From: a virus
Lineage: Duplodnaviria > Heunggongvirae > Uroviricota > Caudoviricetes
Length of the DNA: 64,000 nucleotides
Reading direction: 5' to 3' (one strand)
Virus record (IMG/VR): IMGVR_UViG_3300009165_000005
Part shown: piece after piece, positions 14,745-30,753 of the stretch
Numbering within the stretch: position 1 is the stretch's first letter
How the letters are laid out: every line of letters starts with the position of its first letter
The notes under the pieces: model-generated
Databases searched by the model: none
Told to the model about the DNA's origin: nothing
The model's input: only the letters and a program-made list of their open reading frames with translations
Translations under genes and position numbers: made by a program

Positions 14745-14844
14745 GGTGCACCTTTACCTTCGCCTTCGCCTTTTCATGATGTTTCTCCGTAACAGTTGCA
14801 CACAACCATTAAACACCGAAGCCCCTTGTTAGGGGCTTCGTCAG

Positions 14845-15192
14845 TGGAAGTGCGGGGAATCGAACCCCGGTCCGCCAGCCGTCCAGTACCTCTCTCATTC
14901 ACGTGTGTAGTTGCCATGTCCCTAGCAACTGAGTTCGAGGGTTCGGCCTTCGACCTAGCTCCCTGTTTCTCTCACCTATGCCCCGGGAGCCCGGAACACC
15001 AGCCAGCCTTTGTGGTTTGCAATCCTACCCACTACCAAGACAATCTTGTGGAGGACCGGCTGAAGCTACTTACGCAGCTTCAGCAATTGCGTTATCATTG
15101 GCAATTATGCGTTTCTCGATTGTTCAAGAGCGGATCGAGAGCCGCTCACACGCGAGAGAACCTTTCATCCAACGTCGAAGCCAATCACTCCC
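14845..15192 (-). ncRNA. ssrA: tmRNA (SsrA), tag peptide ANDNAIAEAA
   Basis: 5' end GGGAGTGATTGGCTTCGACG (tmRNA-like). 3' tRNA-like T-arm CGGGGTTCGATTCCCCG. Acceptor GGGAGTG/CACTTCC has a G3:U70 pair (alanine identity). Internal reading frame GCC AAT GAT AAC GCA ATT GCT GAA GCT GCG TAA = ANDNAIAEAA-stop at 15070-15102. Confidence 0.85.
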
Positions 15193-15280
15193 ATAAGAAG
15201 AGGTATACTACCTCAAGTAGGGTTGGTTGTCCAGAGGGGCCTGTGGAGTCATGACTAGCCCGCTCTACTTACAACACCCG

Positions 15281-15556: not shown

Positions 15557-15577
15557 GCGTAGAACTACACCATGTAG

Positions 15578-15651
15578 TAGGCCCTTCCGGACTTGAACCG
15601 GAAACCACCGCCTTATAGGGACGATGCTCTAACCAATTGAGCTAAGAGCCC
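15578..15651 (-). tRNA. tRNA-Ile2 (anticodon TAT, tentative)
   Basis: Cloverleaf parsed by eye. Acceptor GGGCTCT/AGGGCCT, T-loop TTCAAGT, anticodon loop CCTATAA. Confidence 0.65.
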
Positions 15652-15668
15652 TCGAGTGCTTCTGTTAT

Positions 15669-15756
15669 TGGTGCACGAGAGAGGAATTGAACCTCCACGA
15701 GAATTATCTCCTGGGCGTCTGAAACCCATGCGTCTGCCTAGTTCCGCCACTCGTGC
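15669..15756 (-). tRNA. tRNA-Leu (CAG), class II, CCA encoded
   Basis: Acceptor GCACGAG; long variable arm; anticodon loop TTCAGAC; 3' ACCA. Confidence 0.8.
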
Positions 15757-15765
15757 GTTGATTAG

Positions 15766-15837
15766 TAGCCTCAAAGGGATTTGAACCCCCGACCGTCGCC
15801 TTGTAAGGGCGCGACTCTACCACTGAGTTATGAGGCT
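15766..15837 (-). tRNA. tRNA-Val (TAC)
   Basis: Acceptor AGCCTCA/TGAGGCT; anticodon loop CTTACAA; T-loop TTCAAAT. Confidence 0.7.
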
Positions 15838-15859
15838 GTAAGAATAAGTACACCGAAAG

Positions 15860-15936
15860 TGGTGCTGAGAGCGGGACTCGAACCCGCAACTTCCGCCTTA
15901 TGAGGACGGCGCTCTAGCCAGTTGAGCTACATCAGC
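15860..15936 (-). tRNA. tRNA with CAT anticodon (Met, fMet or Ile-lysidine), CCA encoded
   Basis: Anticodon stem CCGTC/GGCGG; loop CTCATAA; T-loop TTCGAGT; 3' ACCA. Confidence 0.75.
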
Positions 15937-15937
15937 A

Positions 15938-16014
15938 TGGCGACCCTGGAGGGACTCGGACCCCCAACTTTTGGTTCCGTAGACCAACGCTCTATCCAAT
16001 TGAGCTACAGGATC
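15938..16014 (-). tRNA. tRNA-Arg (ACG), CCA encoded
   Basis: Acceptor GATCCTG/CAGGGTC; anticodon loop CTACGGA. Confidence 0.8.
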
Positions 16015-16020
16015 ATGAGG

Positions 16021-16094
16021 CACCCCCGGCAGAACTCGAATCTGCAACCTGAAGATTAGAAATCTCCTGCTCTATCCGATTGAGCTACGAGGGC
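16021..16094 (-). tRNA. tRNA-Arg (TCT)
   Basis: Anticodon loop TTTCTAA; T-loop TTCGAGT. Confidence 0.75.
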
Positions 16095-16099
16095 ATGAG

Positions 16100-16660
16100 T
16101 CAAACAGAGAAGCTTCCAAGTTTTCCAAGCATGAGCTCTTCGTAATTGTAGTTCTTACCGAGGCACTCCTGAATACTCACGGACTTCTTGTGGGCCTCGA
16201 TGGCATGGCCGTTGTAGATCCAAAGGCTTCGAGGCACTCTGATCTGACCTAGGACGAACCGAGTACCCAACTCGGTCATCTTGTACATACCGTGAGTCTT
16301 GACCGGTGGCTTCGGATTCAGAACGGACTTTTTCTCCGGTGGGCGTTCCTCAATGAGCTTCCAGTACCTCAGCTTGGACCACTCACCACCCTTCACTTCA
16401 GATCCGAGAGCAACCATGTTCTCGAGGTACTGGCTCATGTCAAGCCAATCCGAAGCTGTCTGGAAGTGGCGGTACATGAGGATCAGCACATAAGCCATGG
16501 TCGAGCTGAGTTCCTTCTCAACCATCCGAACGAGCTGGTGGCAACAAGGACACAAGACCCCCGGACCCTTCACATGAGGCTTTAGCTTCTCTTGGGCTTC
16601 GGCCAAAGTGGAAGAAGGTTGAATTGGAAGGTTTATTGGCTTCTTTCCGACGGTCACCAA
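16100..16660 (-). CDS. hypothetical protein (186 aa)
   Basis: Intact ORF flanked by tRNAs. Confidence 0.45.
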   Translation of the reverse strand: MVTVGKKPINLPIQPSSTLAEAQEKLKPHVKGPGVLCPCCHQLVRMVEKELSSTMAYVLILMYRHFQTASDWLDMSQYLENMVALGSEVKGGEWSKLRYWKLIEERPPEKKSVLNPKPPVKTHGMYKMTELGTRFVLGQIRVPRSLWIYNGHAIEAHKKSVSIQECLGKNYNYEELMLGKLGSFSV

Positions 16661-16690
16661 CTCAGATACACCGAAAACAGAGCGGACGAA

Positions 16691-16763
16691 GGGACTCGAA
16701 CCCTCAACTTTCAGCTTGGAAGGCTAACGCTCTACCAATTGAGCTACGTCCGCAAAAACGACC
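16691..16763 (-). tRNA. tRNA-Gly (TCC)
   Basis: Acceptor GCGGACG/CGTCCGC; anticodon loop CTTCCAA. Confidence 0.8.
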
Positions 16764-17003
16764 TTCTCTTGCGTTAGAGAGCTATTAACCCACGCGCACC
16801 CCACTGAAGGAGAAAGAGTTGGTCTCAAACGACTCCCCGGAATTGTACCGGATCCCTTGTACGTGGCTGGCCACTCCACAGCCCTTCGGACGCATACAAA
16901 GATCAGACTCTGAATCTAGAGCAGTTTGCAAACACCTCATGCAAGCTGTACGGGCCAACCTACCATACTTCGGCGTGACCTGCATGAAACGTCGGAGGCG
17001 TGG

Positions 17004-17087
17004 GTGAGAATCGAACTCACGATTACCGATTCACGCCATTCAAATAAAACTCGACCCAATTGGGCTACGTCCGCATTACTTAGTAAG
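17004..17087 (-). other. chimeric pseudo-tRNA: tRNA-Gly-like 5' part fused to a tRNA-Cys-like acceptor/T-arm minihelix
   Basis: 5' part GCGGACGTAGCCCAATTGG matches the tRNA-Gly(TCC) 5' half. 3' part GGCGTGA...GTGAGTTCGATTCTCACCCACGCC pairs as acceptor plus T-arm only, resembling tRNA-Cys at 17343. No canonical anticodon arm. Confidence 0.4.
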
Positions 17088-17336
17088 TTCGATCCAAGGC
17101 ACTCCTATTTTGGACCCTATGGGACCGAAGTCACCAACTTTGGACCCATCTTTGGATGACCACTTACTGCCATCCTCCGTGGTAACTATGGTCCTGGTAA
17201 CCTTGGTAACTACTGTCTTACCTTTGGTAATTCTCCTGCCATTGACAAGGGCTAAAATAGCTACAGAATCACCTTCCTTGAAGGGATTTGAAGCTAACCT
17301 GAACCTAGTAACCACTGACTCGATTAGAGAATCCAT
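17076..17336 (-). CDS. hypothetical small protein (~86 aa; start moved to MDSLIESVV to clear the tRNA-Cys overlap)
   Basis: The ORF-track start at 17402 overlaps tRNA-Cys; the internal Met gives a non-overlapping gene. Confidence 0.35.
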   Translation of the reverse strand: MDSLIESVVTRFRLASNPFKEGDSVAILALVNGRRITKGKTVVTKVTRTIVTTEDGSKWSSKDGSKVGDFGPIGSKIGVPWIELTK

Positions 17337-17342
17337 AGTTTT

Positions 17343-17416
17343 TGGAGGCGTGGGTGGGGAACGATCCCACGATGAGAGTTTTGCAGACTCTTGCCTTACC
17401 ACTTGGCTACCACGCC
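17343..17416 (-). tRNA. tRNA-Cys (GCA), CCA encoded
   Basis: Acceptor GGCGTGG/CCACGCC; anticodon stem AGAGT/ACTCT; loop CTGCAAA. Confidence 0.8.
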
Positions 17417-17535
17417 AGAGCTACACAACTTCTATCTTGCGAATCTTCACATTACTGGGGCTGAACACTGCTACTTCGGGAACTCCGGCAACCGATTCTC
17501 GACTCATATCCTAAATCCTAGCATAAGCAGTTTAG

Positions 17536-17608
17536 AGCGGGTAGCGGAGATCGAATCCGCCGAATTCACGTTGGCAACGTGATACCTCGCCATTGAGGAG
17601 TTACCCGC
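17536..17608 (-). tRNA. tRNA-Gly (GCC), atypical D-arm
   Basis: Acceptor GCGGGTA/TACCCGC; anticodon stem TCACG/CGTGA; loop TTGCCAA; T-loop TTCGATC. Confidence 0.65.
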
Positions 17609-17645
17609 AAAAATCGAGAGCCCGACTCTCGCCGGGCTCTCCTAG
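17609..17645 (-). terminator. putative intrinsic terminator (minus strand)
   Basis: Perfect 9-bp GC-rich stem GAGAGCCCG/CGGGCTCTC followed on the minus strand by GATTTTTG. Confidence 0.4.
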
Positions 17646-17860
17646 GGGCGGCCGTTCCCAGCTACCCTCCACCACTACTCAAGCATGACCCACTGAGTAG
17701 GGGAGCCACCTTAACACAAGAACTTACCGGAGACAAGGAGATGTGAAGACGACTAAGCTCCTCCCAGTTGAAGGACGGACAGCTCACGCAATCCGACGAG
17801 ACTCGAACTCGCATTCTTGAATGCTAAATTCAATGTAATCTTCACGAACATTCTCCAGCA

Positions 17861-17933
17861 GAGCCCACGACCCGAATCGAACGGGTGATCTCGTTCTTAC
17901 CAAAAACGCGCACTTCCAACTGTGCTACGTGGG
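17861..17933 (-). tRNA. tRNA-Thr (GGT)
   Basis: Acceptor GCCCACG/CGTGGGC; anticodon loop TTGGTAA; T-loop TTCGATT. Confidence 0.8.
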
Positions 17934-18281
17934 CGAAACTTCAAACTTTGACTTGGGGTGTACTGAGAAACCAAGCAAGTCCTCAATGTTATTTTCGTCA
18001 TAATCCCCACAGAGATACCCGGTAGAGTCCGTGCCCGGGATAATCCCGATGATCCCATTGAGAACCCCAAGGATGCTCACTGTCGGAGGCTCCCCGCACC
18101 GGCACTGAACCATTGGGTGCTCAAGAAGAGCTTCGTTCACCGGAACTCGATGCGCGAAGAGACCTTTGATGGCTTCGGGATCGATCTGGAAGTACTCGTT
18201 GAGGCATTTGGCGATGTGCTCAGCAAGTACTTTACGATCACTCAGAAACTCCAAACGCTCTGATGAGGGGGTCATAATCAT
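17925..18281 (-). CDS. hypothetical protein (~118 aa; start at MIMTPSS)
   Basis: The ORF-track N-terminus overlaps tRNA-Gly(CCC). The internal ATG at 18279-18281 gives a clean gene. Confidence 0.4.
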   Translation of the reverse strand: MIMTPSSERLEFLSDRKVLAEHIAKCLNEYFQIDPEAIKGLFAHRVPVNEALLEHPMVQCRCGEPPTVSILGVLNGIIGIIPGTDSTGYLCGDYDENNIEDLLGFSVHPKSKFEVSPT

Positions 18282-18299
18282 CAAGTACACCGAGAAGAG

Positions 18300-18375
18300 T
18301 GGAGCGGGAGAAGGGACTCGAACCCTCGACATTTTGCTTGGGAAGCAAATGCTCTACCAACTGAACTACTCCCGC
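18300..18375 (-). tRNA. tRNA-Gly (CCC), CCA encoded
   Basis: Acceptor GCGGGAG/CTCCCGC; anticodon loop TTCCCAA. Confidence 0.85.
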
Positions 18376-18381
18376 ATGGAT

Positions 18382-18457
18382 TGGAGCCCCTGGTCGGAAT
18401 TGAACCAACGACCTTGACTTTACAAAAGTCCTGCTCTACCAACTGAGCTACAGGGGC
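18382..18457 (-). tRNA. tRNA-Thr (TGT), CCA encoded
   Basis: Acceptor GCCCCTG/CAGGGGC; anticodon loop TTTGTAA; T-loop TTCAATT. Confidence 0.8.
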
Positions 18458-18459
18458 CC

Positions 18460-19524
18460 TTAGGCTTTCATTTGGGCAGCCGCCGCCGCAAGAACATCTC
18501 TCACGTTCTGAGGGAGCGTGGTAAACGAAGTAGCCATCTCCGCGAGAAGCTTCTTACCATTCTTGGCTCTGGTGAGGTTCTTCTTCGATCCGTCGTAGTA
18601 GTAGTAGGTGCCAAAGACTAAATCGAGCGCCTTGCCCCCACAGACCTTCTGAACATCCGCTTCCCCAAGAGGGAACTCCTTGCCATTAATGACAAGCGTG
18701 ATCCCCTCGTTCTTCTCATACCCACCACGATGCTTTATCTTGTAGAGGCCAGGTTCGTCCTTGAAGGAGTTTTCACGGTACACTAGCTCTACCACATGCT
18801 TACGGTTCATGATCCTTGGATCATCACCAGAAACGGTACCACTATCCGCTAGCCAGTGCTTGATGCTGGTAGGGTTACCTTTGGGGAATTTGTCATTGAG
18901 CTTCCACCCGGTTGCATCAATCACCTTCGAGTTGAAAGTACCCTTGAAACCAACTGCTTTAAGTGCCTTTATCACGTTCCCGTAAAGCCAAGCAGGATCT
19001 GTCGACTTAGGGCTATCTGGTACTTCAAGAGAATCGAGGATCCAAACATCCTTCTTGTCATTCCTCCGAAGGGCATAGCTTTCATAGACAAGGTGACTCA
19101 TTCCAACAAACACATGCTTGGAGTCAGTCTTTCCGTAAGCTACCCAGAAGTTGCTCGACTTGTGGAACTCCTCAGAAGAGTACCCAGCCTCTCGTTGAAT
19201 GCCCGTAACAAACTTCCACTCAACGCCCGCTGGGATGCCAGCCTTACTCTTGGCTTCCTCAAAGGTTACCTGAACTACTTCAGGTTCTGGATCGTAGCTG
19301 ACGTCAGCAGGACCCTCGTAAGACGGAGGCGCGCCACGATCTGGAGTTAGCTGTCCTTTGAGAAGGTCAGCAGCGGCATTGATCTGGGCCATGACCCTCT
19401 CATCCCCACCACGATCAGGGTGATGCTTCAGGACCAACTTACGACGAACTGACTCAACTTCGGAATCAGAAGGATTGGAGTTCGGAGGAAACCCAAGAAT
19501 TTTTTTTGCTTCCTCAAGGCTCAT
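18460..19524 (-). CDS. DnaJ (J-domain) protein
   Basis: J-domain MSLEEAKKILGF...KLVLKHHPDRGGD with the HPD motif. The ORF-track N-terminal extension overlaps tRNA-Ala, so the start is placed at MSLEEAKK (19524). Confidence 0.65.
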   Translation of the reverse strand: MSLEEAKKILGFPPNSNPSDSEVESVRRKLVLKHHPDRGGDERVMAQINAAADLLKGQLTPDRGAPPSYEGPADVSYDPEPEVVQVTFEEAKSKAGIPAGVEWKFVTGIQREAGYSSEEFHKSSNFWVAYGKTDSKHVFVGMSHLVYESYALRRNDKKDVWILDSLEVPDSPKSTDPAWLYGNVIKALKAVGFKGTFNSKVIDATGWKLNDKFPKGNPTSIKHWLADSGTVSGDDPRIMNRKHVVELVYRENSFKDEPGLYKIKHRGGYEKNEGITLVINGKEFPLGEADVQKVCGGKALDLVFGTYYYYDGSKKNLTRAKNGKKLLAEMATSFTTLPQNVRDVLAAAAAQMKA

Positions 19525-19632
19525 TGACAGCTTAATAGCGTTGAATCTTGCTGCCACCTTGAACGTAAGTAGTGCGTCTTGAAATGCCCGAAGCGGAGAG
19601 ACCATACTGCTGGTTAGCAATAAGAAGACTAG

Positions 19633-19705
19633 TGGAGCTGAAGGAAGTCGAATCCTTGGCCTCTGCAATGCGAAAGCAGCGCTCTTCCAACTGAGCTACA
19701 GCCCC
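19633..19705 (-). tRNA. tRNA-Ala (CGC)
   Basis: Acceptor GGGGCTG with a G3:U70 pair (Ala identity). Anticodon loop TTCGCAT; T-loop TTCGACT. Confidence 0.75.
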
Positions 19706-19706
19706 A

Positions 19707-20192
19707 TTACTTCAAAACTTTGGCCAACAACCTTCTGGCCATGTTCATCATGTGCATGCCAACCAACTCGGAGTCCTCGACTATCTCTTGAAGCTCGATG
19801 ACTTTCGATTGGTCTGGCTTCCCCTGAAGGTTGTAGGGTAAGTACCCTATATCGAGGAACAGCTTCCCACCATGACACCCTAGATGCATTGTGAAGGCAT
19901 CAATGGGTTGAGGTGGAGAGAAATAATAGAAGACGTCGTTCTGTCGCTGACTCGCGTTCATCGAGTAGCGATCACCCATTGTCTTCCTGAACAAGTTAAT
20001 CAAGTTAGGGAGTAGAGCGTTGATTGAGTCTCTACCATCCCGAAATAGAGCTAGATCAATCTGGGGGTTGCTTTTGAAGGAAGTCTTAACTGCATATCGC
20101 TCGAAGACCCACTCAGGGATCTCAGGACGATACCCCGACATGGCAACCTTGAAGTTCCACCTGGCGACAACGCTTCTGACTAGATGATCCAT
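19707..20192 (-). CDS. hypothetical protein (161 aa)
   Basis: Intact ORF. Confidence 0.45.
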   Translation of the reverse strand: MDHLVRSVVARWNFKVAMSGYRPEIPEWVFERYAVKTSFKSNPQIDLALFRDGRDSINALLPNLINLFRKTMGDRYSMNASQRQNDVFYYFSPPQPIDAFTMHLGCHGGKLFLDIGYLPYNLQGKPDQSKVIELQEIVEDSELVGMHMMNMARRLLAKVLK

Positions 20193-20222
20193 TCTAGTCA
20201 GAAGGGCTCATAGGTGGTTTAG

Positions 20223-20294
20223 TTGGGACACCAGGATTTGAACCTGGATAAACGGAATCAGAATCCGTTGTCTTGCCGATTGGACGATGTCCCA
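20223..20294 (-). tRNA. tRNA-Gln (CTG)
   Basis: Acceptor TGGGACA/TGTCCCA; anticodon stem ACGGA/TCCGT; loop TTCTGAT. Confidence 0.75.
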
Positions 20295-20488
20295 ATAGTA
20301 ACTTCCGAGTTATGTTCGTAGCCCTCAAACAAGTCAAGTTGTTTTGAGCCTTCAAATTCAGGAGTCTCCTCTTGCTCTTGAAGCCCTTGAGTTGCTCGTA
20401 GCGAGTCAGCCCAACACTTGTAACTACAATAGTCAGTGCCTCGATAGACGACTGGTCGTATCCCGCACCAAACACAAGGACGTTTCAT
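20258..20488 (-). CDS. small zinc-ribbon protein (putative)
   Basis: CVWCG...CSYKC motif. C-terminus overlaps tRNA-Gln, so the true extent is uncertain. Confidence 0.25.
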   Translation of the reverse strand: MKRPCVWCGIRPVVYRGTDYCSYKCWADSLRATQGLQEQEETPEFEGSKQLDLFEGYEHNSEVTIGTSSNRQDNGF

Positions 20489-20498
20489 GATGAAATTG

Positions 20499-20570
20499 CA
20501 GGGGCACTCCGATTTGAACGGAGATTGACGGTTTTGGAGACCGCCTTCCTACCAATTGAAAGATGCCCCT
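20499..20570 (-). tRNA. tRNA-Trp (CCA)
   Basis: Acceptor AGGGGCA/TGCCCCT; anticodon stem GCGGT/ACCGT; loop CTCCAAA. Confidence 0.8.
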
Positions 20571-20574
20571 ATGC

Positions 20575-21186
20575 TTACACCGAGTGACCATAGCGAAGTG
20601 CTACTTTTCCAGCAATGAACTCATCTTCTGTGCAGGGTGACTTACGTTCTGAAACCTTAACTTCATGAGGTGTGAAGGAAACCCCAGTTTCTTCTACCGC
20701 AGCCTGATAGGACGGAATCATTTCAGACCAGTCTTCCCAAAGGTCCACCATCCTAATTGTGGGGTGTTCCAGAAGGATTCTCTGGATCTGTTCGACCTTG
20801 AACTCCTTGGTATCCACGCGGTCTGACAGGTGCACCTCGTCGAAGTTCAAGCCTTTCTGCCCCAACAGCGCATGAATCCGATCCGTGAAAACTTCCCTTG
20901 GACGCCCCGTAAGAAGGACCACGTAACTATACTCGTCCTTCATTTCCTCTCGAGCTGCCTTGACAGTTGACTCGATCCACCAGTCTGATGGTACCTTCGG
21001 AAGACAAGGAGGGATCATCGACTCAATCTGGAACCACCAACCATCCTTGTCTTCCCACCAATCTGGCGGATGTGGGCTGCGGAACAGCGTCCCGTCGAAG
21101 TCGAATACACAGAGCCGACGGATCACCTTAGATTGCTCAAAGATCGAATACAAGTTTGACAAGATCGAATGGCCATTTCCAACCAC
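20575..21186 (-). CDS. HAD-superfamily phosphatase (possible polynucleotide 3'-phosphatase)
   Basis: HAD motif I CVFDFDGTLF (DxDGT). Size and context resemble PNK-phosphatase-like phage proteins. Confidence 0.55.
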   Translation of the reverse strand: MVGNGHSILSNLYSIFEQSKVIRRLCVFDFDGTLFRSPHPPDWWEDKDGWWFQIESMIPPCLPKVPSDWWIESTVKAAREEMKDEYSYVVLLTGRPREVFTDRIHALLGQKGLNFDEVHLSDRVDTKEFKVEQIQRILLEHPTIRMVDLWEDWSEMIPSYQAAVEETGVSFTPHEVKVSERKSPCTEDEFIAGKVALRYGHSV

Positions 21187-21382
21187 TTTCGAGCCTGAAC
21201 CTCATCCTCAGCCCACACAAACTCTGGTGTTGATTTCAATCCCTATTGAACCATCTTCCCCCTTGAAGGCTTGAGGTCTAAACAGGAACTTGGAAGCATC
21301 ACCATGATCCCCTGCCACTCTCGAAGCTAGACCTCTAAGAACGGCTGCTAATCTCATCCTACTAGGGTTCGGCTGAGCTACC

Positions 21383-21675
21383 ACCTGGTATACCGTTCTG
21401 TGAAACTTACTCAAAGTTAGCTTTGATGTTCACTTCCTGCTTCAACGAATCGTGACTCGTAGACCTAAATTTTCATCTAGTTCCGCCGTTAGAGGACTCT
21501 CTACAGGCTTTCAGAGATCATAAGATCTCCACGTTTCCCCTAAACTATGGGTACGTTAAACACGTAAAGTTGGTTCTTTTCTTGATTCCTCAAGTCTTTT
21601 ACCGCAACAAGGACAACGACATTGCGCCTTCGGCGCAAGTCTTTCGTGCTGCGAACCACTTAGACTTGCTTTTCA
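21383..21675. repeat. copy 1 of a ~290-bp direct repeat (copy 2 at 63705-64000, window end)
   Basis: About 98% identity over ~290 bp, differing by 5 substitutions and one 2-nt indel. Contains UUCG-type hairpin GCGCCTTCGGCGC and palindrome GAGATCTTATGATCTC. No ORF. Confidence 0.85.
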
Positions 21676-21941
21676 AGGATCATCTCAGGTCTTCCCTTGG
21701 TTTTCGGGTTTAGTTGCCTGAGTCCCCGAACCCTAATTCAGTCCTGAGAGAATGTCAAGCTAATCTGGTTTGATCAACTTTGATCAACTTTTCTTTCAGC
21801 TGCTCCAACCCTTGCTAACTCTGAGCTCAGTTCCAAAGTGTTGGCTATTCGACGCATACTCAAGTTTTCCAATAAACAGTTTCTGGTCCTTTCTGCCAAG
21901 TTAGAGTATTAGATTTAACTCAAGCCTCTGGCGTGCTTTTG

Positions 21942-22132
21942 CGCAGCTAGCGGGATTTGAACCCGCGATCTACTCCGTGACAGGGAGCTGGGGACGGCCG
22001 GACTCCCCTATAACTGCATAACTTGCGGAGACAAGAAACGTAAAGACGTTTGGGTCAGCTGCTCTGCCAACTGAGCTATACCTTGGCTTTTTGAAGGCCA
22101 AGGCAATGGGACTCGAACCCATGACCTGCTGA
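21942..22132 (-). other. composite tRNA-like locus: orphan 3' half followed by its matching 5' half, then a third T-arm/acceptor element
   Basis: On the minus strand: ...A TCAGC AGGTC ATGGG TTCGAGT CCCAT TGCCTTG G, then linker CCTTCAAAAAGC, then CAAGGTA TA GCTC AGTTGGCA GAGC A GCTGA. The acceptor strands pair 7/7 (CAAGGTA/TGCCTTG) and the anticodon-stem strands pair 5/5 (GCTGA/TCAGC), but the order is 3' half then 5' half. Further downstream a T-arm GCGGGTTCAAATCCCGC plus TAGCTGC pairs with GCAGCTG embedded in the D-arm region. Confidence 0.5.
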
Positions 22133-22167
22133 TTAGTTGTAGTCCTTACTGCATTCTCCGCAAAAAC

Positions 22168-22857
22168 TTACTCGCTTGGCAGCTCTTGGATGAAGTCCCA
22201 GATGTCCGAAAACTCATGCAGAGTGACAGCGTAGGCGGGATCAATGTCGATCCCATACCAGGAAGCTCCGAGAGCCTCAACCGGTTTCTGGCTTGAACGA
22301 CTACCCGCGAACGGGTCAAGGACCAGGCTCCCTTTGGTGATCGACACCTCCCCAAGACGGTCCCAAAGCTCTTTGGGTTTCTCGTAGGGATGGCTTCTAC
22401 CCTGGCGGACCGCAGGGATGTGAAGGCTATTCGAGTAGGCCTTGTCAGTTCGCTTCTCCGCCGGCCCCTTAGTAGCAAAGAAGATGGGGTCCCACCCAGA
22501 GCGCCAGACACCCCCGGTGCCAACGTAGCTCTTGTCCCAAGAGATGATCGTCGTCGGGAACCACCCGGACAGGGACAGCGAGAATCCCGTGTCTGGAATC
22601 CCCTTCCAGTCCCCGAACAGGTAAAGGTGGCAACCGTCCTTTGCTACCCTGTGGAGCTGCTGTAGGGCTCGGATCAGGAACGAGATGGGACCGTAGACCC
22701 TTGCTGCAGCCCCGTCGTCCTTGCCTCGAACTGGTGACCCCTGTGAGTAGGGCCAGTCGAACAGGATCGTGTCAAAGGTGTCCGCGGGGACCCCCTTGAG
22801 GACCTTCAGGCAATCTCCGTTGACGACGCCCCCTCGAACCAAGCCATTGACTTCCAT
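22168..22857 (-). CDS. DNA methyltransferase (N6-adenine/N4-cytosine, beta class)
   Basis: Motif IV ILFDWPYSQGS (a DPPY variant) precedes motif I VLDPFAGSRSS. Start placed at MEVNGL to clear the tRNA-Arg overlap. Confidence 0.65.
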   Translation of the reverse strand: MEVNGLVRGGVVNGDCLKVLKGVPADTFDTILFDWPYSQGSPVRGKDDGAAARVYGPISFLIRALQQLHRVAKDGCHLYLFGDWKGIPDTGFSLSLSGWFPTTIISWDKSYVGTGGVWRSGWDPIFFATKGPAEKRTDKAYSNSLHIPAVRQGRSHPYEKPKELWDRLGEVSITKGSLVLDPFAGSRSSQKPVEALGASWYGIDIDPAYAVTLHEFSDIWDFIQELPSE

Positions 22858-22858
22858 G

Positions 22859-22934
22859 TGGCGCCCCAAAGCCGATTCGAACGGCTGACCTATCGGTTAG
22901 GAACCGATTGCTCTGTCCTCTGAGCTACTAGGGC
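22859..22934 (-). tRNA. tRNA-Arg (CCT), CCA encoded
   Basis: Acceptor GCCCTAG/TTGGGGC; anticodon stem ATCGG/CCGAT; loop TTCCTAA; T-loop TTCGAAT. Confidence 0.8.
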
Positions 22935-23830
22935 TTGAGATCTAAACGCTCCGGATGAGGTTCCCAGGAGCTGAGTCTTTTCTGAACTACACCGAGGATT
23001 CGAGTGACCTCTTGAATTTGAGCTTTCTGCTGCTCGATGCAGATCTTGAGGTAGCTAGCCCACCTCTTGGGTTCAGTCTCGTCCCTCTTGTGGGCATTCA
23101 ACCCGATGATCAGGATGTCCTGTTCGTCTCGTTCAAGTCTACCGAAGACATCCTTCAGATCTTCCAAGATTTCCCTCAGATGAACCACGTAGGCTTCCGA
23201 TCCGTCCGAGCTAAGCTCGAATGGAGGCCACCCGCTACCGAAGCACTCCCCTTGGAGGTATCCAATACCAGGCCGACGGTACCCGTGAAGCACCATCCCA
23301 GGCATCGACCGATCCCCCTTCTTGGCTTTGGGGGTGAGCATGAACGGTCCGAAGCAACAGGGGCAGGTGGCCTTACCTACCCGAGCACGCTCCTCGCGCT
23401 CTTGCTTTTTACGCTCGGTCTCAGCCTCGTAGGATTCCATCTGCAGAGCTTCGAGTACCTGATCTTGGAAGTGGTTCTTGGTCATCCACTGGTCGAGGGA
23501 GACACCCTCGGAGTCACGAATCAAAAACGGGTACTCTCTCCCAATGAAGTCGAAGAAGGATTCAGTCTCGAAGCTAGCACCTACGGGAGAGGTGAACTTG
23601 GTGCCTCCTCTGATGGGTTCGATCTTCCAGTGAAGTAAATCGAAGATGGGCCACAACTCCTTGAGTGGCTTCCCCAGCTTAGGATTCTTACGAACCCACA
23701 AGAGGAGCTTGGTCATCTTCTCTGAGTCCAAAGGACGCCTACGAGCAGCAGCCTGAAAGCGGCGGACTACGCTTTGGACGATACAAACCGAGTCCATACT
23801 AGTTCCTCTATTTGCTCCCTCTCGGAGCAC
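22928..23830 (-). CDS. hypothetical protein (300 aa)
   Basis: Intact ORF containing a CPCC motif. Confidence 0.45.
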   Translation of the reverse strand: MLREGANRGTSMDSVCIVQSVVRRFQAAARRRPLDSEKMTKLLLWVRKNPKLGKPLKELWPIFDLLHWKIEPIRGGTKFTSPVGASFETESFFDFIGREYPFLIRDSEGVSLDQWMTKNHFQDQVLEALQMESYEAETERKKQEREERARVGKATCPCCFGPFMLTPKAKKGDRSMPGMVLHGYRRPGIGYLQGECFGSGWPPFELSSDGSEAYVVHLREILEDLKDVFGRLERDEQDILIIGLNAHKRDETEPKRWASYLKICIEQQKAQIQEVTRILGVVQKRLSSWEPHPERLDLKP

Positions 23831-24411
23831 TTGCTTGCCAGCTCTTGTTGGGTTAGCAGTCGGTGGTTTCGTCGACCATCGGTCTTACGAAGCATGCACA
23901 TCCCGCAACAACCCTTAATCCCGGCTCGCCTACGATGTCTTCTCTTGAAGTTTGCCAATGGTTCCTCCCAGCCGCCGTCAGCGGCGCGGTAGTGAACCGT
24001 GGAAACCTTGAACTCAACATTGGATCAAACCTTCTCAACAACAAGAGCTCTACGAAATCTAACATCCCCCGTCAAGTTGAACTTCTTAGAGAGATCTTGT
24101 CCAGGTGGAAGTTTCATATCCCACCCACGAGTAACCCAACCATAATGGTTGACCGTCACAATATCTCCCTTGACGTCCTTGACCTCGAGCTCAACTCCCC
24201 TACGCATTTCGCTCCACCAATCACCACGTTTCATCCATACCTTGAGAATGTCTCCCTTTGCAAGGCCACTTTCCGAAGCATACCTGGAGACTACATTGGC
24301 GATGATTTTGAGTTCGTCCACAACGATGATGCTAGCACAAAAAAGAAACTGGGGTGGCGTACGGGTAACGATCCCGCCAGGGACTGTTTCACAGACAGCC
24401 AGGTTCACCAT
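23767..24411 (-). pseudogene. single reading frame interrupted by one in-frame TGA (24025-24027): pseudogene or readthrough/recoding candidate
   Basis: ORFs 24025-24411 and 23767-23958 share a frame (645 nt = 215 codons). The only stop between them is TGA. The downstream part begins with TTG, not ATG, and has no independent start signal. Confidence 0.4.
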
Positions 24412-24499
24412 GCTCCTTCACGCCACCATAGCGGAGACCAGAGTACTCGAAACTCAATCCTTGCAGGAACCCCAGGGTTCCAATCTGGTGAGCGACCAC

Positions 24500-25273
24500 T
24501 CACTCTACGTCTTCCAAGTTCTCAATCACTTCTACGGCTGAATCTTCCAAATAGGCGAATGCCGACTTTCCACTAGTACCGCCTAGAAGCTTGTCAGTTC
24601 TTTCCCAGATAGCGGTGCTCTCGAGAGCACTGCTCTCAAAGTCATTCGGAAGGGCATCCTCCCAATCGTCCCATCCAATGGGAAGCCCTCTAACCCAAGC
24701 CTCGAAAAACTCGAAACTCCCTGCCTCAGAGGCTGGGGCTCCAAAGTCTGGTATATACCTTCGGACATGAGCTAATGCGGCTTTTGAACGTCCGAAATCG
24801 AAAGACCGCAACCATTGGAGCTCATTGGGCTGAGGTGTCTCAGAGAAGCTCATGATCTTGTTGATCAGGTTGTCGCGATTGAAGCTATTCAACTCTTTGA
24901 GAATGGGGGAACGATCCAAGATATCAAAGATCTGGTCCCCATCTGGGATCTTAGCCCCAACGTTCACCCAGAAATTCATGAGCGGGGAGACTTCAGATCT
25001 AAGCTCAGCAAACCCTGATGGATCGTGTCTCAAAGCTCGAAACCTAGGGGTATACTGGTTCATAACAGCAAGCTGTTGATCAAGATGACCAACGAGCTGA
25101 GCTTTCTTATGTAGCGGTTGAGACTTGAAAGCATCAACCAGAGCTTCGAGATCGCTAGCAAGCCCTTTCAAGAAGCCCCAATCTACGAAACTAGCCCAAG
25201 CATAGCTCAACCGCTCTAGATCAGCAGCAAACTTGTACTTAGCGGACACGCGAGAAACGATAGGATCCATCAA
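24500..25273 (-). CDS. hypothetical protein (257 aa)
   Basis: Intact ORF. Confidence 0.45.
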   Translation of the reverse strand: MMDPIVSRVSAKYKFAADLERLSYAWASFVDWGFLKGLASDLEALVDAFKSQPLHKKAQLVGHLDQQLAVMNQYTPRFRALRHDPSGFAELRSEVSPLMNFWVNVGAKIPDGDQIFDILDRSPILKELNSFNRDNLINKIMSFSETPQPNELQWLRSFDFGRSKAALAHVRRYIPDFGAPASEAGSFEFFEAWVRGLPIGWDDWEDALPNDFESSALESTAIWERTDKLLGGTSGKSAFAYLEDSAVEVIENLEDVE

Positions 25274-25364
25274 CTAGGTGGGGGCCAAGAGAAGAAAAGT
25301 CAGAATTTGTTAATTCTAAAATTCGAACCCGTTGAACATGGCTCACCTCTCTGCTTACTAGCAA

Positions 25365-26102
25365 TCACTCACCTTTCCCATTGGTCGGGGTGGTGAGGAT
25401 CGAACTCACCTGATGTCCTGATCCCAAATCAGGCGGCCCACCTTGAGCCCACACCCCGAAAGTCCATGATTCTTGAAGCAAGTCCATCCAAGCCTCAAGT
25501 CGACACCTAAGGTAAGTATCACTAACTCGAACTGTTAGAACCCCATACTTGGACCTCCAAACCCTACCATTCAAGTTACCACTATTCGACTTTCTCTGAA
25601 GATGAATCAAGTCAGGAGAAACTTGAAGAAGGCTCGACCAAAACTGAACTAGATCAAAGATATTTTGGTCGATATGAGTCTGGATAGGGAAGCTTAAAGC
25701 ACGATCTGGGTTAGCCAATCTCTTTAACCAATAGTAAGCTAATTGAACTAACTTTGGATTTGAGTTTGAAATACTCACAGTGTTTTTCGTGCGACGAAAA
25801 CCTTCTGTCAAATACAACACCACAAAGTCACGAAAAGTAGGGGAGAGTAACAACTCAGAAAACTCTGAGACCCCTTTCTGATAAGCTTTCTCTCTGAGTT
25901 CCTTGTAACGAAGTGAATTCTTGGCCGCTGCTCCTTTACCTAAGTTGTACCCAGATCTACTCTTGCGCTGAAGGGGGATATTCTTAATCCAGTGATAGAC
26001 TGTACCCTTACCTAAAGATACTCGCTCACATATTTCGTCAATTGAGAGACCTGCCAGACGGAGCTTCCGAGCAAGAACCCTAAGATGATCGTACTTCTTC
26101 AT
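25365..26102 (-). CDS. HTH DNA-binding protein; C-terminus overlaps tRNA-Pro
   Basis: N-terminal HTH LSIDEICERVSLGKGTVYHWIKN. The last ~30 codons are the reverse complement of tRNA-Pro(TGG), so the true 3' end is uncertain. Confidence 0.4.
   Translation of the reverse strand: MKKYDHLRVLARKLRLAGLSIDEICERVSLGKGTVYHWIKNIPLQRKSRSGYNLGKGAAAKNSLRYKELREKAYQKGVSEFSELLLSPTFRDFVVLYLTEGFRRTKNTVSISNSNPKLVQLAYYWLKRLANPDRALSFPIQTHIDQNIFDLVQFWSSLLQVSPDLIHLQRKSNSGNLNGRVWRSKYGVLTVRVSDTYLRCRLEAWMDLLQESWTFGVWAQGGPPDLGSGHQVSSILTTPTNGKGE
25382..25458 (-). tRNA. tRNA-Pro (TGG), CCA encoded
   Basis: Acceptor CGGGGTG/CACCCCG; anticodon stem CCTGA/TCAGG; loop TTTGGGA; T-loop TTCGATC. Confidence 0.75.
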
Positions 26103-26228
26103 TTCAAACCCTCAACCAGGTCGTTCATACACCAGTTGAAGATTGTTTTAACAATGAATCGAGACAAGGATTGAGAAGATATAAGCCTTTCGGCTCCGCC
26201 GTGTCTGCCATTCCACCACAAACGAGTT

Positions 26229-26308
26229 TCCTCACTAGGAGGGACTCGAACCCTCACGTCCTTTCGGACAGCGGATTTTCAATTGTAATCTTCTACAGCA
26301 TTCTCGAC
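26229..26308 (-). other. tRNA-like fragment (T-arm plus variable-arm hairpin, no matching 5' acceptor or D-arm)
   Basis: GAGGGTTCGAGTCCCTC T-arm preceded by a GTCCGAAAGGAC GNRA hairpin. No complement to the 3' acceptor CTAGTGA upstream. Confidence 0.35.
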
Positions 26309-26407
26309 TGGTACCATCATCGGGGCTCGAACCCGAACTCCATAGGAACAATGCCCTGGGGTACGTATCCCCAACACTGCGAGTCTTCCAATTTCCTCCA
26401 TGATGGT
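26309..26407 (-). tRNA. atypical 99-nt tRNA with a 21-nt structured insertion at the anticodon-loop position, CCA encoded
   Basis: Perfect acceptor ACCATCA/TGATGGT; T-arm TCGGGTTCGAGCCCCGA; 3' ACCA. Anticodon stem CAGTG/CATTG encloses TTGGGGATACGTACCCCAGGG instead of a 7-nt loop. Anticodon unresolved. Confidence 0.5.
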
Positions 26408-26409
26408 AT

Positions 26410-26495
26410 TGGTGCACGAAAGAGGACTCGAACCTCCACGGGATCTCTCCCACTATCACCTCAAAATAGCGCGTCTGCCCTTCCGCCACTCGTGC
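26410..26495 (-). tRNA. tRNA-Leu (GAG), class II, CCA encoded; paralog of the Leu tRNA at 15669
   Basis: Acceptor GCACGAG/TTCGTGC; anticodon stem CTATT/GATAG; loop TTGAGGT; long variable arm. Confidence 0.8.
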
Positions 26496-26529
26496 ATAGC
26501 TAATTCACTTTTAACCTAAGACCAGTATC

Positions 26530-27375
26530 ATGGATCGGACCCTTCAAGCCTTCGAGGACACCCTCATCACGCGCAACCTAGTAGCCCGAGTAGTTGAGGC
26601 AACTGAGTTTCCTACTGAGGAAGCTCGCAAGAAGTACTTGCAGAGTCATCCGAAAGCTAACCCAGCGAACCACACGGTTCGCAAGAACAAGACCCCTACT
26701 CAGTTCCGAAGAACTGACAAGACCCGTTGGGACGACGTACTCAAGAACACCAAGGGACTGAAGGAGCTTGGTGAGAAAGCCACCAAGGGCGATGAGGAAG
26801 CTAAGGCTGAGGTCTCAAAGAGGTACACGGCTCTCGTGGACCATGGCGAGTCGATGGCAGATGATGCCAAGTCCCTCACCAAGAAGCTCAAGGGAAACGC
26901 CAAACTTAGCGACAAGGCCAAAGAACACTTGGGGGAGCTCGAGAAGGCAATCAAGAAGTGGGACTCGATCTCCCACGCAGCCCAGAAGGCCAAGGGCCGC
27001 AACACTGAAGCTCAACTCCAACATGCCAACGAGGTCATGACAGCCGCTAGTACTGTCAGAACTCTAACCCACTGGTTCCAAGACCAGGCTGTTCAGGACA
27101 AAGCCTTGAAACGATCCTCTGAGGAATGGAAGACCGATGGTGAAACCATCGTTACCGCCAAGTACATGATAGATACTCGCAAGTTCTACGACTTGTTTGA
27201 CGATATTGAAGAGCATAGTTCCGCTATGGCAACAGCTCTAGGAAACTATGTACGAAATCCTGATAAGTTGAAGCCCCAATTGGACAAGCTTCTCTTATTC
27301 TCTAACCAAATCAAGATCGATCTCCAAATCCTCGGGAAGTTGGTTGCCAGACTGAAAGCTGGCGAGAACCCCTAG
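26530..27375 (+). CDS. paralog family member A (conserved N-terminal EFPTEEARKKYLQSHPKANPANH motif, Lys/Glu-rich tail)
   Basis: Shares its N-terminal motif with the ORFs at 29736-30251 and 31414-31797. Confidence 0.55.
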   Translation: MDRTLQAFEDTLITRNLVARVVEATEFPTEEARKKYLQSHPKANPANHTVRKNKTPTQFRRTDKTRWDDVLKNTKGLKELGEKATKGDEEAKAEVSKRYTALVDHGESMADDAKSLTKKLKGNAKLSDKAKEHLGELEKAIKKWDSISHAAQKAKGRNTEAQLQHANEVMTAASTVRTLTHWFQDQAVQDKALKRSSEEWKTDGETIVTAKYMIDTRKFYDLFDDIEEHSSAMATALGNYVRNPDKLKPQLDKLLLFSNQIKIDLQILGKLVARLKAGENP

Positions 27376-27775
27376 TAGGTTCCAGATTCCACCATTGACA
27401 AGAAATCGTGCGAGACGTCTATTGTTTCCGGTAATGTAGTCCACGCACAGCATTCAGTGGCGGAATCTGGTATTCGGAGCCATACACTAACTTGCTTTAG
27501 ATTGCAAGAGAAAAGTTTGGCCCTGACAAGGGATGGTAATGAGGGGCTTATGGCCTACGCATTGATGTGTCCAGAGATCCCTGGACTTGCATCCGCTCGT
27601 CCCGCGCCTTAGGGTCAGTTACTACCCACTGGAGTTCCTTACTAGGGAGCTCGAACTGGCGCCATCGCATAATCCCTCGCGAGATCAGTCGCTACTTTAG
27701 GACCGTTATTGTACTCACTACCGGCATTCAGGACCGATTGGACAATACACCGGAGATCACGTTAAGTCAAGTTGA

Positions 27776-27849
27776 TCAGAGTAAGAGGACTTGAACCTCC
27801 AATCTCGTGATCCCGAACCACGCGCTCTACCAAACTGAGCTACACCCTG
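27776..27849 (-). tRNA. tRNA-Pro (CGG)
   Basis: Acceptor CAGGGTG/TACTCTG; anticodon stem CGTGG/TCACG; loop TTCGGGA. Confidence 0.75.
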
Positions 27850-27888
27850 ATGAACCACGAAGACAAGAATTCGAAAGAGGAACGTACG

Positions 27889-27960
27889 GCGTCCTGACCA
27901 CTAGACGATCCCCGCATAGGTTGGAGCGGGGAGAGGGATTCGAACCCACGTGTCCGGCTT
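27889..27960 (-). other. orphan tRNA 3' half (T-arm, acceptor, CCA), a 6-nt linker, then an orphan 5' half with a perfectly complementary acceptor
   Basis: Minus strand: GTGGG TTCGAAT CCCTC TCCCCGC T CCA, linker ACCTAT, then GCGGGGA TC GTCT AGTGGTCA GGAC G. Acceptor strands GCGGGGA/TCCCCGC are 7/7 complementary but in 3'-then-5' order. No full tRNA can be assembled on either side. Confidence 0.5.
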
Positions 27961-27996
27961 GGATGGCAATGTACTCCTTCAGGCATTCTTCGTGAT

Positions 27997-28072
27997 TGGT
28001 GGCTGAGGTCGGGATCGAACCGACTACGCACAGATTTTCAGTCTGTCGCTCTACCATTTGAGCTACTCAGCC
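27997..28072 (-). tRNA. tRNA-Phe (GAA), CCA encoded
   Basis: Acceptor GGCTGAG/CTCAGCC; anticodon stem ACAGA/TCTGT; loop CTGAAAA; T-loop TTCGATC. Confidence 0.85.
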
Positions 28073-28077
28073 ATTAG

Positions 28078-28162
28078 TGCATCAGGAGAGAATCGAACTC
28101 TCACGGGAATTACCCCACTAGATTTTGAGGCTAGCGTGTCTGCCTAGTTCCACCACTGATGC
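28078..28162 (-). tRNA. tRNA-Leu (CAA), class II
   Basis: Acceptor GCATCAG/CTGATGC; anticodon loop CTCAAAA; long variable arm. Confidence 0.75.
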
Positions 28163-28166
28163 GTAG

Positions 28167-28250
28167 TACCCAAGGAGGGATTTGAACCCTCAAGCCACTA
28201 GGGCCTCCGGTTCTGAGCCGGAGCTGTATGCCAGGTTCCAGCACTTGGGC
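28167..28250 (-). tRNA. class II tRNA, anticodon loop CTCAGAA (CAG, Leu-like; second, divergent copy)
   Basis: Acceptor GCCCAAG/CTTGGGT; 6-bp anticodon stem CTCCGG/CCGGAG; long variable arm; T-loop TTCAAAT. Confidence 0.65.
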
Positions 28251-28326
28251 ATGGACCAGAGACAAGGGGTGTGAAGAGGGTTATTTTCTCCAATTGAATT
28301 GTACTCCCCACGAGCATTCTCTAGTT

Positions 28327-28403
28327 TGGTTGGCCCCATCAGATTCGAACTGATCACTTCACGCTTATCAGGCGTACGCTCTAACCAACTGAGCTACGGG
28401 CCA
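28327..28403 (-). tRNA. tRNA-Ile (GAT), CCA encoded
   Basis: Anticodon stem TACGC/GCGTG; loop CTGATAA; T-loop TTCGAAT. Confidence 0.8.
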
Positions 28404-28821: not shown

Positions 28822-28905
28822 TCGAATAGGTTTCCCTACTCGGCAGGATCTGCCCCTGCAAAGCTCCCGGGCGTAAGCCCCTGGTAATGTAGTCCTCAGT
28901 GCATT

Positions 28906-28999
28906 CTTCGCTTAGTAGTCCCTCCCGGACTCGAACCGGGACGTTCACAAGGAACTGCGGGTTTTAGGCCCGCCGCGGCTGCCTTTACGCCAAGGGACC
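28906..28999 (-). tRNA. tRNA-Leu (TAA), class II
   Basis: Acceptor GGTCCCT/AGGGACT; anticodon stem GCGGG/CCCGC; loop CCTAAAA; long variable arm; T-loop TTCGAGT. Confidence 0.75.
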
Positions 29000-29000
29000 A

Positions 29001-29714: not shown

Positions 29715-29735
29715 ACGAGCCTTGACACCGCGCGG

Positions 29736-30251: not shown

Positions 30252-30299
30252 GCTTCTATAGAAGAGGATTACTGGAACTGAGATTCGTACGTCGGCATA

Positions 30300-30725: not shown

Positions 30726-30753
30726 AATTAGCCACTACCCCGAGAGTAAATTG

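Follow-up and report, generated by a model that had tools for sequence, protein, structure and literature searches.

A one-piece tmRNA of Polyangia affinity with an altered tag ending in a probable huge-phage lineage

The tmRNA gene

The stretch of DNA analysed here, referred to as the window, comprises 64,000 nucleotides (nt) of the IMG/VR virus record IMGVR_UViG_3300009165_000005, and the element in question is a gene for transfer-messenger RNA (tmRNA, SsrA) on its minus strand. A sequence-only reading of the window had described a complete SsrA of about 348 nt at 14845–15192, strand unstated, and had named ARAGORN and covariance models as the means to check it. Both call a tmRNA. ARAGORN places it at 14844–15192 on the minus strand, of the standard non-permuted type, with the tag peptide ANDNAIAEAA*. 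The Rfam tmRNA covariance model RF00023 matches 14842–15192 on the same strand with 121.4 bits (E = 6.7e-47; gathering score 47), and this match is untruncated, spanning model positions 1–374 of 374. The match is also collinear, so that the gene does not have the permuted two-piece order of RF01849/RF04321.

The gene measures 348 nt, and the proposed coordinates proved exact, with G1 at 15192 and the discriminator A at 14845; a window coordinate equals 15193 minus the RNA position. Each structural feature described in that reading was borne out. The G3:U70 pair and the internal tag reading frame ending in Ala-Ala and a stop codon had been read correctly, and a pseudoknot (PK1) does lie upstream of that frame, where the reading had called for one. 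Open reading frames (ORFs) drawn across the gene had been dismissed as artefacts; the plus-strand ORF 14796–15254 (152 amino acids, aa), which crosses the tmRNA, has no Pfam match and is therefore consistent with an artefact. The parts of the gene and its flanking signals are as follows.

15205..15233, minus strand: sigma-70-like promoter, TGGACA-17-TAGTAT, a consensus match ending 12 nt upstream of G1
14845..15192, minus strand: tmRNA (ssrA) gene, 348 nt, from ARAGORN and RF00023
15186..15192 with 14846–14852, minus strand: acceptor stem (H1), 7 bp, RNA 1–7 with 341–347, GGGAGUG/CACUUCC, 7/7 pairs
RNA 19–46 with 286–320, minus strand: helix H2, in three segments
15114..15146, minus strand: PK1, an H-type pseudoknot with stems of 5 bp (RNA 47–51/60–64) and 7 bp (RNA 53–59/73–79)
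15070..15102, minus strand: tag reading frame, RNA 91–123, with resume codon GCC at 15102–15100, ten codons and UAA at 15072–15070
15059..15084, minus strand: helix H5, 9 bp, RNA 109–117/126–134, 9/9 pairs, with the stop codon in its 8-nt loop
14910..15057, minus strand: PK2, PK3 and a hairpin with PK4, RNA 136–283, a hand-derived structure tested by pair counts
15008–15057, minus strand: PK2
14959–15003, minus strand: PK3
14910–14953, minus strand: hairpin and PK4
14853..14869, minus strand: T-arm, RNA 324–340, with a 5-bp stem (5/5 pairs) and the 7-nt loop UUCGAUU
14817..14840, minus strand: GC-rich terminator-like hairpin, CGAAGCCCCU-AACA-AGGGGCUUCG followed by GUGUUUAAU, beginning 5 nt past the discriminator

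In the window RNA, all 12 pairs of PK1 are Watson–Crick, and 11 nt separate its end from the resume codon.

Syntenic relatives and conservation of the fold

Syntenic tmRNAs occur at four further loci: L017, a 184-kb IMG/VR contig; L058; L183, which is the 512,571-bp metagenome contig Ga0265322_10000002; and L184. All four keep the gene order tRNA array–tmRNA–HNH–vWA–exonuclease, with RtcB seen only in L017. The HNH protein is 78–86% identical across these relatives, a stability that is unusual for a homing-type endonuclease.

L017: 88% identity to the window RNA, tag ANDNALAAAA
L058: 87% identity to the window RNA, tag ANDNAIAAAA
L183 and L184: 77% identity to the window RNA, tag ANDNAYAAVA, read by homology

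The last tag was misplaced by ARAGORN, which gave VADLPRDSLGSG in place of ANDNAYAAVA.

Conservation of the fold was measured in a MAFFT alignment of 43 sequences, namely the window RNA, two relatives from phages and a non-redundant set of 40 bacterial homologues, by counting pairs for a hand-drawn structure that includes the pseudoknots. When run on this alignment, RNAalifold returned no helices beyond H1, H2, the T-arm and PK3 stem 2, and the rest were placed by hand. Over the whole fold, 73.6% of cells form standard pairs, compared with 64.5% after shuffling and 38–52% when partners are slid by 1–3 columns. The covariation score comes to 0.290, where the shuffles give 0.149, and by no measure does any of the 500 shuffles attain what was observed. 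The G3:U70 pair (15190 with 14848) is invariant in 43/43 sequences. Pairing reaches 90–100% of cells in H1, H2a (99.6%), H2b (91%), the base of H5, PK3 stem 2 (93%), PK4 stem 1 (91%) and the T-arm, where every cell is paired and two pairs change on both sides. The PK1 stems pair in 71–72% of cells, with changes on both sides in six of the seven stem-2 pairs, and PK2 stem 1 pairs in 73%, with covariation at all 10 of its pairs. H2c, PK3 stem 1 and the hairpin before PK4 are only ~50% paired in this wide alignment. Within the phage subclade, compared as the window, L017, L058 and L183 (77–88% identity), PK3 stem 1 keeps 6–8 of nine pairs and the hairpin before PK4 keeps six of seven.

In the same four subclade RNAs, double substitutions preserve the helices of PK1 stem 2, PK2, PK4 stem 2, H2a, H5 and hairpin A. 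PK1 stem 2 shows compensatory changes from U-A to G-C and from C-G to U-A, and compensatory changes in H5 are seen in L017, L058 and L183. For PK2 stem 2, the alternative pairing UGGU (156–159)/ACCA (177–180) was set aside in favour of the register homologous to bacteria, 154–159 with 180–185. Taken together, these patterns show selection acting on the entire tmRNA fold in the phage copies, and the gene is therefore probably in use rather than a leftover.

Transcription signals and RNA ends

The promoter match is, by itself, no better than chance (one found, one expected). L017 and L184, however, have a CTGGACA box upstream of the gene, L058 and L183 have CTGGTCA there, and the terminator hairpin is kept, with a varying loop and stem, in three of the four relatives (L017, L058 and L184). 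This conservation of the −35-like box and of the terminator suggests that the tmRNA forms its own transcription unit. The 3′ CCA is encoded in L017 but not in the window, where the sequence runs on as A-CUG. The window's tRNA genes are split about evenly between those with and those without an encoded CCA, and post-transcriptional CCA addition is therefore expected for the tmRNA as well. The CCA-adding enzyme motif GG.[VI]RD was not found in the window.

Wider relatives and viral status

Cultured phages offer no close counterpart. A blastn search with the tmRNA region against 50,697 GenBank phage records found no relative, and a megablast search with 25 kb against GenBank phages returned only a 59-nt tRNA match. 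The RtcB protein of the window has no match above 33% identity among cultured phages and plasmids; its relatives at 66–84% identity are without exception sequences of the IMG/VR viral collection, and the contigs that carry them reach 619 kb. More distant tmRNAs near RtcB are found in L007 (437 kb) and L019 (363 kb). One ORF of the window carries a tail-fibre-like N-terminal domain (phrog_38058, 3.6e-9). Contigs with identical proteins are at most 32 kb long, with no virion genes on them, and the exact tag pattern has no match in the IMG/VR collection searched, which itself lacks the window sequence. We conclude that the window probably represents an uncultured huge-phage lineage. Support for the earlier label "phage-encoded" is indirect: it comes from syntenic relatives on IMG/VR viral contigs of 184–437 kb and on the 513-kb metagenome contig, from a tRNA array like those of jumbo phages and from the tail-fibre-like ORF, and no capsid or terminase gene lies in the window.

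A pattern scan, combining the resume-codon context with ANDN[AG]xA, identified 17 distinct one-piece tmRNAs in IMG/VR, on large viral contigs and beside tRNA arrays; the same scan also found unrelated permuted tmRNAs of alphaproteobacterial type. The one-piece phage tags are ANDNAIAEAA, ANDNALAAAA, ANDNAIAAAA, ANDNAIADQAIAA, ANDNGVAQARAA, ANDNA[FV]APLALAA, ANDNGVAPLALAA, ANDNAFAPVAQAA, ANDNAFAEVAIAA and ANDNAFAMAA. ARAGORN missed the huge-phage tmRNAs of L035, L038, L045, L049, L062, L065, L008/L032 and L066, which score 57–115 bits with Rfam. Given these misses and the misplaced tags, phage tmRNA surveys that use no other tool than ARAGORN probably under-count such genes and misreport some of their tags.

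Several of these genes have features of their own. The tmRNA at L008:5044–5508 (the same as L032) belongs to a viral contig of 142 kb. Its length of 465 nt exceeds that of its relatives by about 100 nt, which suggests an internal insertion; its acceptor stem begins with GUG instead of GGG, and G3:U70 is kept. A second group of one-piece huge-phage tmRNAs (L026, L040, L046, L035, L050, L055, L062, L038 and L045; IMG/VR contigs of 65–481 kb) always lies directly after 3–5 tRNA-Thr genes, or two where the locus is short. The tags of this group are ANDNAFAPVAQAA, ANDNAFAPLALAA and ANDNAFAMAA, which we take to resemble alphaproteobacterial tags; Alphaproteobacteria use two-piece tmRNAs. Finally, the last 22 nt of the subclade RNAs (T-arm and acceptor strand, GGTTCGATTCCCCGCACTTCCA) are identical in otherwise unrelated tmRNAs of a metagenome scan (L179–L191), including ones with long tags such as ANIQARVRAAIANAFAPAFATVAA and ANFMARVKNAFAFSYAPVAA. 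The tRNA-like domain has either been exchanged between tmRNAs or converged.

Polyangia origin and probable host

A pattern scan of 185,579 species, one genome each, gave 110 loci. Among the 80 of these that are listed, 55 are true tmRNAs, and nearly all are labelled Polyangiaceae, Polyangiales, Myxococcales or Myxococcota, including Minicystis rosea, Byssovorax, Sandaracinus and Nannocystis. Their tags ANDNAIALAA and ANDNALALAA are one and two residues away from the window tag, respectively. The window RNA is 60–66% identical to the Polyangia tmRNAs and ~49% identical to other huge-phage tmRNAs and to a provisional E. coli sequence. In a neighbour-joining tree, the phage trio has a bootstrap value of 100 and joins 28 Polyangiaceae-type sequences at 75, apart from the other Polyangia. 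The GC content of the tmRNA, 0.55, lies between the bacterial tmRNA mean of 0.61 and the ~0.50 of the phage genome, and is therefore consistent with amelioration towards the latter.

Judging from these comparisons, the tmRNA was most likely captured from a bacterium of the myxococcotal class Polyangia and has since resided for a long time in the phage. Such a capture would make Polyangia the probable host lineage, and the earlier suggestion that the tag can hint at the host is borne out to the extent that comparison with candidate host tags points to this class. To our knowledge, almost no phages are known for Polyangia. The assignment proposes a specific, testable host for an uncultured lineage of huge phages whose contigs reach 513 kb.

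The altered ending of the tag

The tag of the window, whose last codon before UAA is GCG, ends in A-E-A-A and lacks the Leu-Ala-Ala of the canonical ssrA degron. The antepenultimate codon, GAA (Glu), sits in the 5′ strand of H5, and changes there are compensated on the 3′ strand. Leucine occupies this position (−3) in 54 of the 55 Polyangia tags and in none of the four distinct subclade tmRNAs, which end in AEAA, AAAA (twice) and AAVA; in the wider phage family, it is found in 4 of 17 sequences. The subclade tags keep the ANDNA start and the final Ala. Flynn and co-workers reportedly found, in 2001, that Leu9, Ala10 and Ala11 are the determinants recognized by ClpX. In E. coli, ALAA is the ClpX-binding module, and a tag with the ending ADAS is degraded less efficiently (PMC8512704). 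By analogy, there is a weak indication that the phage tag may be a poorer ClpXP degron. It would follow, as the weakest step of the argument, that the phage tmRNA probably serves ribosome recycling more than the ClpXP-directed destruction of the tagged product. A position fixed in the candidate hosts, the leucine of LAA, has thus been replaced in the phage copies.

Genomic neighbourhood

The window has a GC content of ~0.50. The tmRNA stands at the junction of a complete tRNA set, directly upstream on the same strand, and a cluster of RNA-repair type directly downstream. Pfam scans covered a selection of the window ORFs. The main neighbours are listed below.

46343–46416, minus strand: 38th tRNA, anticodon CUA (amber suppressor; labelled "Pyl" by ARAGORN), an ARAGORN call
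44023–45609, minus strand: Ro60/TROVE-vWA protein
42223–42885, plus strand: peptide deformylase, part of a protein-synthesis support set
15577..32679, minus strand: array of 37 tRNA genes called by ARAGORN, 28 of them above the Rfam gathering score
9348..14744, minus strand: RNA-repair-type cluster
14193–14744, minus strand: HNH endonuclease
12499–14241, minus strand: vWA protein
11869–12447, minus strand: Rv2179c-like 3′-5′ exonuclease
10447–11850, minus strand: RtcB ligase
9910–10446, minus strand: Tpt1/KptA (PTS_2-RNA) 2′-phosphotransferase
9348–9947, minus strand: SpoU/TrmH methylase
7271–8911, minus strand: GroEL-type chaperonin, downstream of the tmRNA, part of the same support set

DNA polymerase III delta and delta′ and NrdD/NrdG are also encoded downstream of the tmRNA, and dCTP deaminase is encoded in the window as well. 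The 38 tRNA genes cover all 20 amino acids, and small ORFs of unknown function are interleaved in the array. The position of the tmRNA between the tRNA set and the RtcB/Tpt1/exonuclease cluster fits the idea that giant phages carry a translation-sustaining kit against RNA-cutting host defences.

The tRNA-CUA gene prompted a look at stop-codon recoding, which was rejected for the window: TAG ends 21 of the 67 ORFs of at least 100 aa, including those for RtcB and the vWA protein. Outside the window, late genes might be recoded by means of this suppressor, which would also raise read-through to mRNA ends and therefore the demand for tmRNA. One or two tRNA-CUA genes also lie within a few kb of the tmRNA in the huge-phage loci L026, L055 and L062.

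Proposed function and rival explanations

We hold with good confidence that the gene encodes a functional, standard one-piece tmRNA of an uncultured huge phage, situated in a translation-sustaining gene block that also holds the 38 tRNAs, RtcB/Tpt1/exonuclease, the Ro60-like protein, peptide deformylase and GroEL. Ribosome rescue during infection can reasonably be proposed as its function. From the observed sequence, fold and fold conservation, the following course of events is envisaged. The RNA would be transcribed from its own promoter and end at its own terminator; its 5′ end would be trimmed by RNase P, and CCA would be added after transcription. The host alanyl-tRNA synthetase (AlaRS) would charge it with alanine by way of G3:U70. 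Together with SmpB, either the host's or a phage copy outside the window, and EF-Tu, it would enter ribosomes stalled on broken or stop-less mRNAs. Translation would resume at GCC, add A-ANDNAIAEAA and terminate at UAA, and the ribosome would be freed. Since its capture, the gene would have been kept in the phage lineage under selection for structure.

A bolder extension, which we regard as unlikely, is that a Polyangia-infecting clade of huge phages captured a host tmRNA and re-tuned its tag. The phage RNA would go on rescuing stalled ribosomes, but with the leucine of the LAA degron lost (endings EAA, AAA and AVA), this recycling would no longer be tied to proteolysis by ClpXP. By competing with the host's own tmRNA for SmpB, the phage RNA could in addition protect truncated products of the phage, or knock out a read-out of host quality control or defence while infection proceeds.

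Several points weigh against these interpretations. No SmpB was detected in the window or the fetched flanks by tblastn, phmmer or six-frame searches, for which a provisional E. coli SmpB sequence was the query, with limited sensitivity; the SmpB motif G.E[VI]KS is likewise absent from the six-frame translation of the window and from the fetched loci, and the window has no AlaRS-sized ORF. Since SmpB, AlaRS and a CCA-adding enzyme were not found, the tmRNA would need host factors or phage genes beyond the 64 kb. The 64-kb window also has no capsid, portal or terminase gene, which makes its phage status indirect. As for the Polyangia origin, the bacterial set was chosen by the phage-tag pattern, so that lineages with other tags and possibly closer RNAs are unsampled; the sole outgroup of the tree is the provisional E. 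coli sequence; the bootstrap value of 75 is moderate; and Polyangia genomes have a GC content of ~0.7, far from the ~0.50 of the phage. With respect to the tag, the effect of Leu-to-Glu on ClpX is extrapolated from work on E. coli, with another tag and another host. Furthermore, a bacterial contig of Polyangia type (L127, from a Myxococcota metagenome-assembled genome) has the tag ANDNALAAAA, so that a non-Leu ending need not mean that function is lost. The possibility that this contig is a mis-binned phage contig was rejected: it has high GC, lacks a tRNA array and clusters with the bacterial tmRNAs.

The changed ending could also be understood if the phage tmRNA worked mainly against the host system, with any extra rescue capacity secondary. 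Host SmpB and stalled ribosomes would be occupied, and either the products would be poorly degradable or quality control and phage sensing would be blunted. This competitor or decoy role, which we consider distinctly unlikely, agrees with the loss of the antepenultimate Leu throughout the subclade while ANDNA and the final Ala are kept. It also agrees with the failure to find smpB in the window with the E. coli query, which implies that host SmpB must be shared unless a copy lies elsewhere, and with the discussion of the tRNA-like-domain-only fragment of phage DS6A and similar molecules as SmpB-titrating inhibitors (PMC4131195). However, the mRNA-like domain, for which a pure SmpB sponge has no need, is intact and carries compensatory changes: PK1, the context of the resume codon, H5 with its stop codon and PK2–4 have all been kept. 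Moreover, a decoy still requires real trans-translation, and it therefore overlaps the preferred reading of a functional phage tmRNA and differs from it only in who benefits. That the gene is a mere passenger, i.e., a recently captured host ssrA with no phage role, arising by imprecise excision at an ssrA site or as an attP-type mimic, is very improbable, even though the 3′ ends of ssrA genes are common integration sites and the similarity of the window RNA to Polyangia tmRNAs is clear. The gene is present in full rather than as a 3′ fragment, it is only 60–66% identical to the nearest bacterial copies with its GC moved towards that of the phage, and it has its own conserved terminator. Its position is kept in relatives whose proteins are 50–86% identical, double substitutions preserve its helices, and no integrase was found among the selected window ORFs that were scanned.

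There is likewise very little probability that the window belongs to a megaplasmid or to a bacterial chromosome with a tRNA-array island, the tmRNA being a plasmid or cellular copy. Arrays of tRNA genes interleaved with small unknown ORFs are characteristic of jumbo phages, the genuine bacterial tmRNA loci that were inspected have high GC and no tRNA arrays, and the tail-fibre-like domain and the RtcB relatives, all of them viral at 66–84% identity with none above 33% on plasmids or in cultured phages, point in the same direction. Against this stands the lack of virion genes noted above, and some large putative plasmids do carry similar sets of translation genes (Al-Shayeb et al., PMC7162821).

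Relation to known tmRNAs

The closest known system is the Polyangia tmRNA (RF00023), represented by Polyangiaceae, Sandaracinaceae, Nannocystis, Byssovorax and Minicystis rosea (CP016211). It shares with the window gene a one-piece architecture with collinear helices and pseudoknots, the AUANNU-GCN resume context and a 10-residue tag in which 8 or 9 of 10 residues match. The window RNA differs in having Glu instead of Leu at −3, the acceptor sequence GGGAGUG instead of GGGGGCG, a GC content of 0.55 instead of 0.61 and no encoded CCA; its location is the end of a phage tRNA array and not a bacterial chromosome. Among metagenomic huge phages, tmRNAs and SmpB have been listed with other translation genes (Al-Shayeb et al. 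2020, Nature, PMC7162821). These tmRNAs have the same context of many tRNAs and translation genes, were also detected with ARAGORN and were also proposed to act in ribosome rescue. That study, however, reports tmRNA presence only and mentions SmpB, whereas no SmpB was found in the window. The Polyangia affinity and the changed tag ending were deduced here from sequence comparison.

In cultured phages, tmRNAs are known from the cluster C mycobacteriophages (Bxz1, Cali, Catera and others), Wildcat and phage G (Hudson, Lau & Williams 2014, PMC4131195; PMC1475703), and the tag of the Bacillus phage G tmRNA is AKLNITNNELQVA (PMC12484599). Like the window gene, these are full-length genes in large genomes with many tRNAs; their sequences are unrelated to it, and their tags and host phyla differ. 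The mycobacteriophage DS6A carries a tmRNA fragment that is likewise phage-borne, yet it holds little beyond the tRNA-like domain and has been discussed as a possible inhibitor (PMC4131195), in contrast to the complete mRNA-like domain and all four pseudoknots of the window RNA. The two-piece alphaproteobacterial tmRNAs (RF01849/RF04321), many of which appeared in the IMG/VR scan, have tags that also start with ANDN, e.g., ANDNGFAVALAA, but the window RNA is not permuted and matches RF00023 end to end. A full-text literature search gave no match for the tag strings or for the phrase "phage-encoded tmRNA". The class of phage tmRNAs has been known for years, and the window gene adds one example that is unrelated in sequence. 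The additions made here are the proposed Polyangia origin and host, the signs that the fold is under selection among the phage relatives, and the finding that the leucine of LAA has been lost systematically.

Other features of the window

Within the tRNA array, the 99-nt tRNA-Pro(GGG) at 26309–26407 (minus strand) is an ARAGORN call that falls below the Rfam tRNA gathering score; the call may be wrong, or the gene may be interrupted by an intron or insertion. The tRNA-splicing ligase RtcB is encoded near this gene.

Three adjacent plus-strand ORFs (49407–49973, 49984–50196 and 50496–51131) share a near-identical N-terminal stretch (ITSELLVGWE.PNLI.DELLPM...) and form a small tandem paralogue family of unknown function. 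At 52938–55559 (plus strand), a YqiJ/NfeD-like membrane protein adjoins a 655-aa SPFH/Band-7 (flotillin-like) protein, the tail of which is a long Ala/Glu-rich coiled coil. A 230-aa ORF at 62718–63410 (plus strand) appears PspA-like by eye, with no Pfam hit on record, and the NfeD-like, Band-7 and PspA-like proteins may together form a membrane-stress module on the phage.

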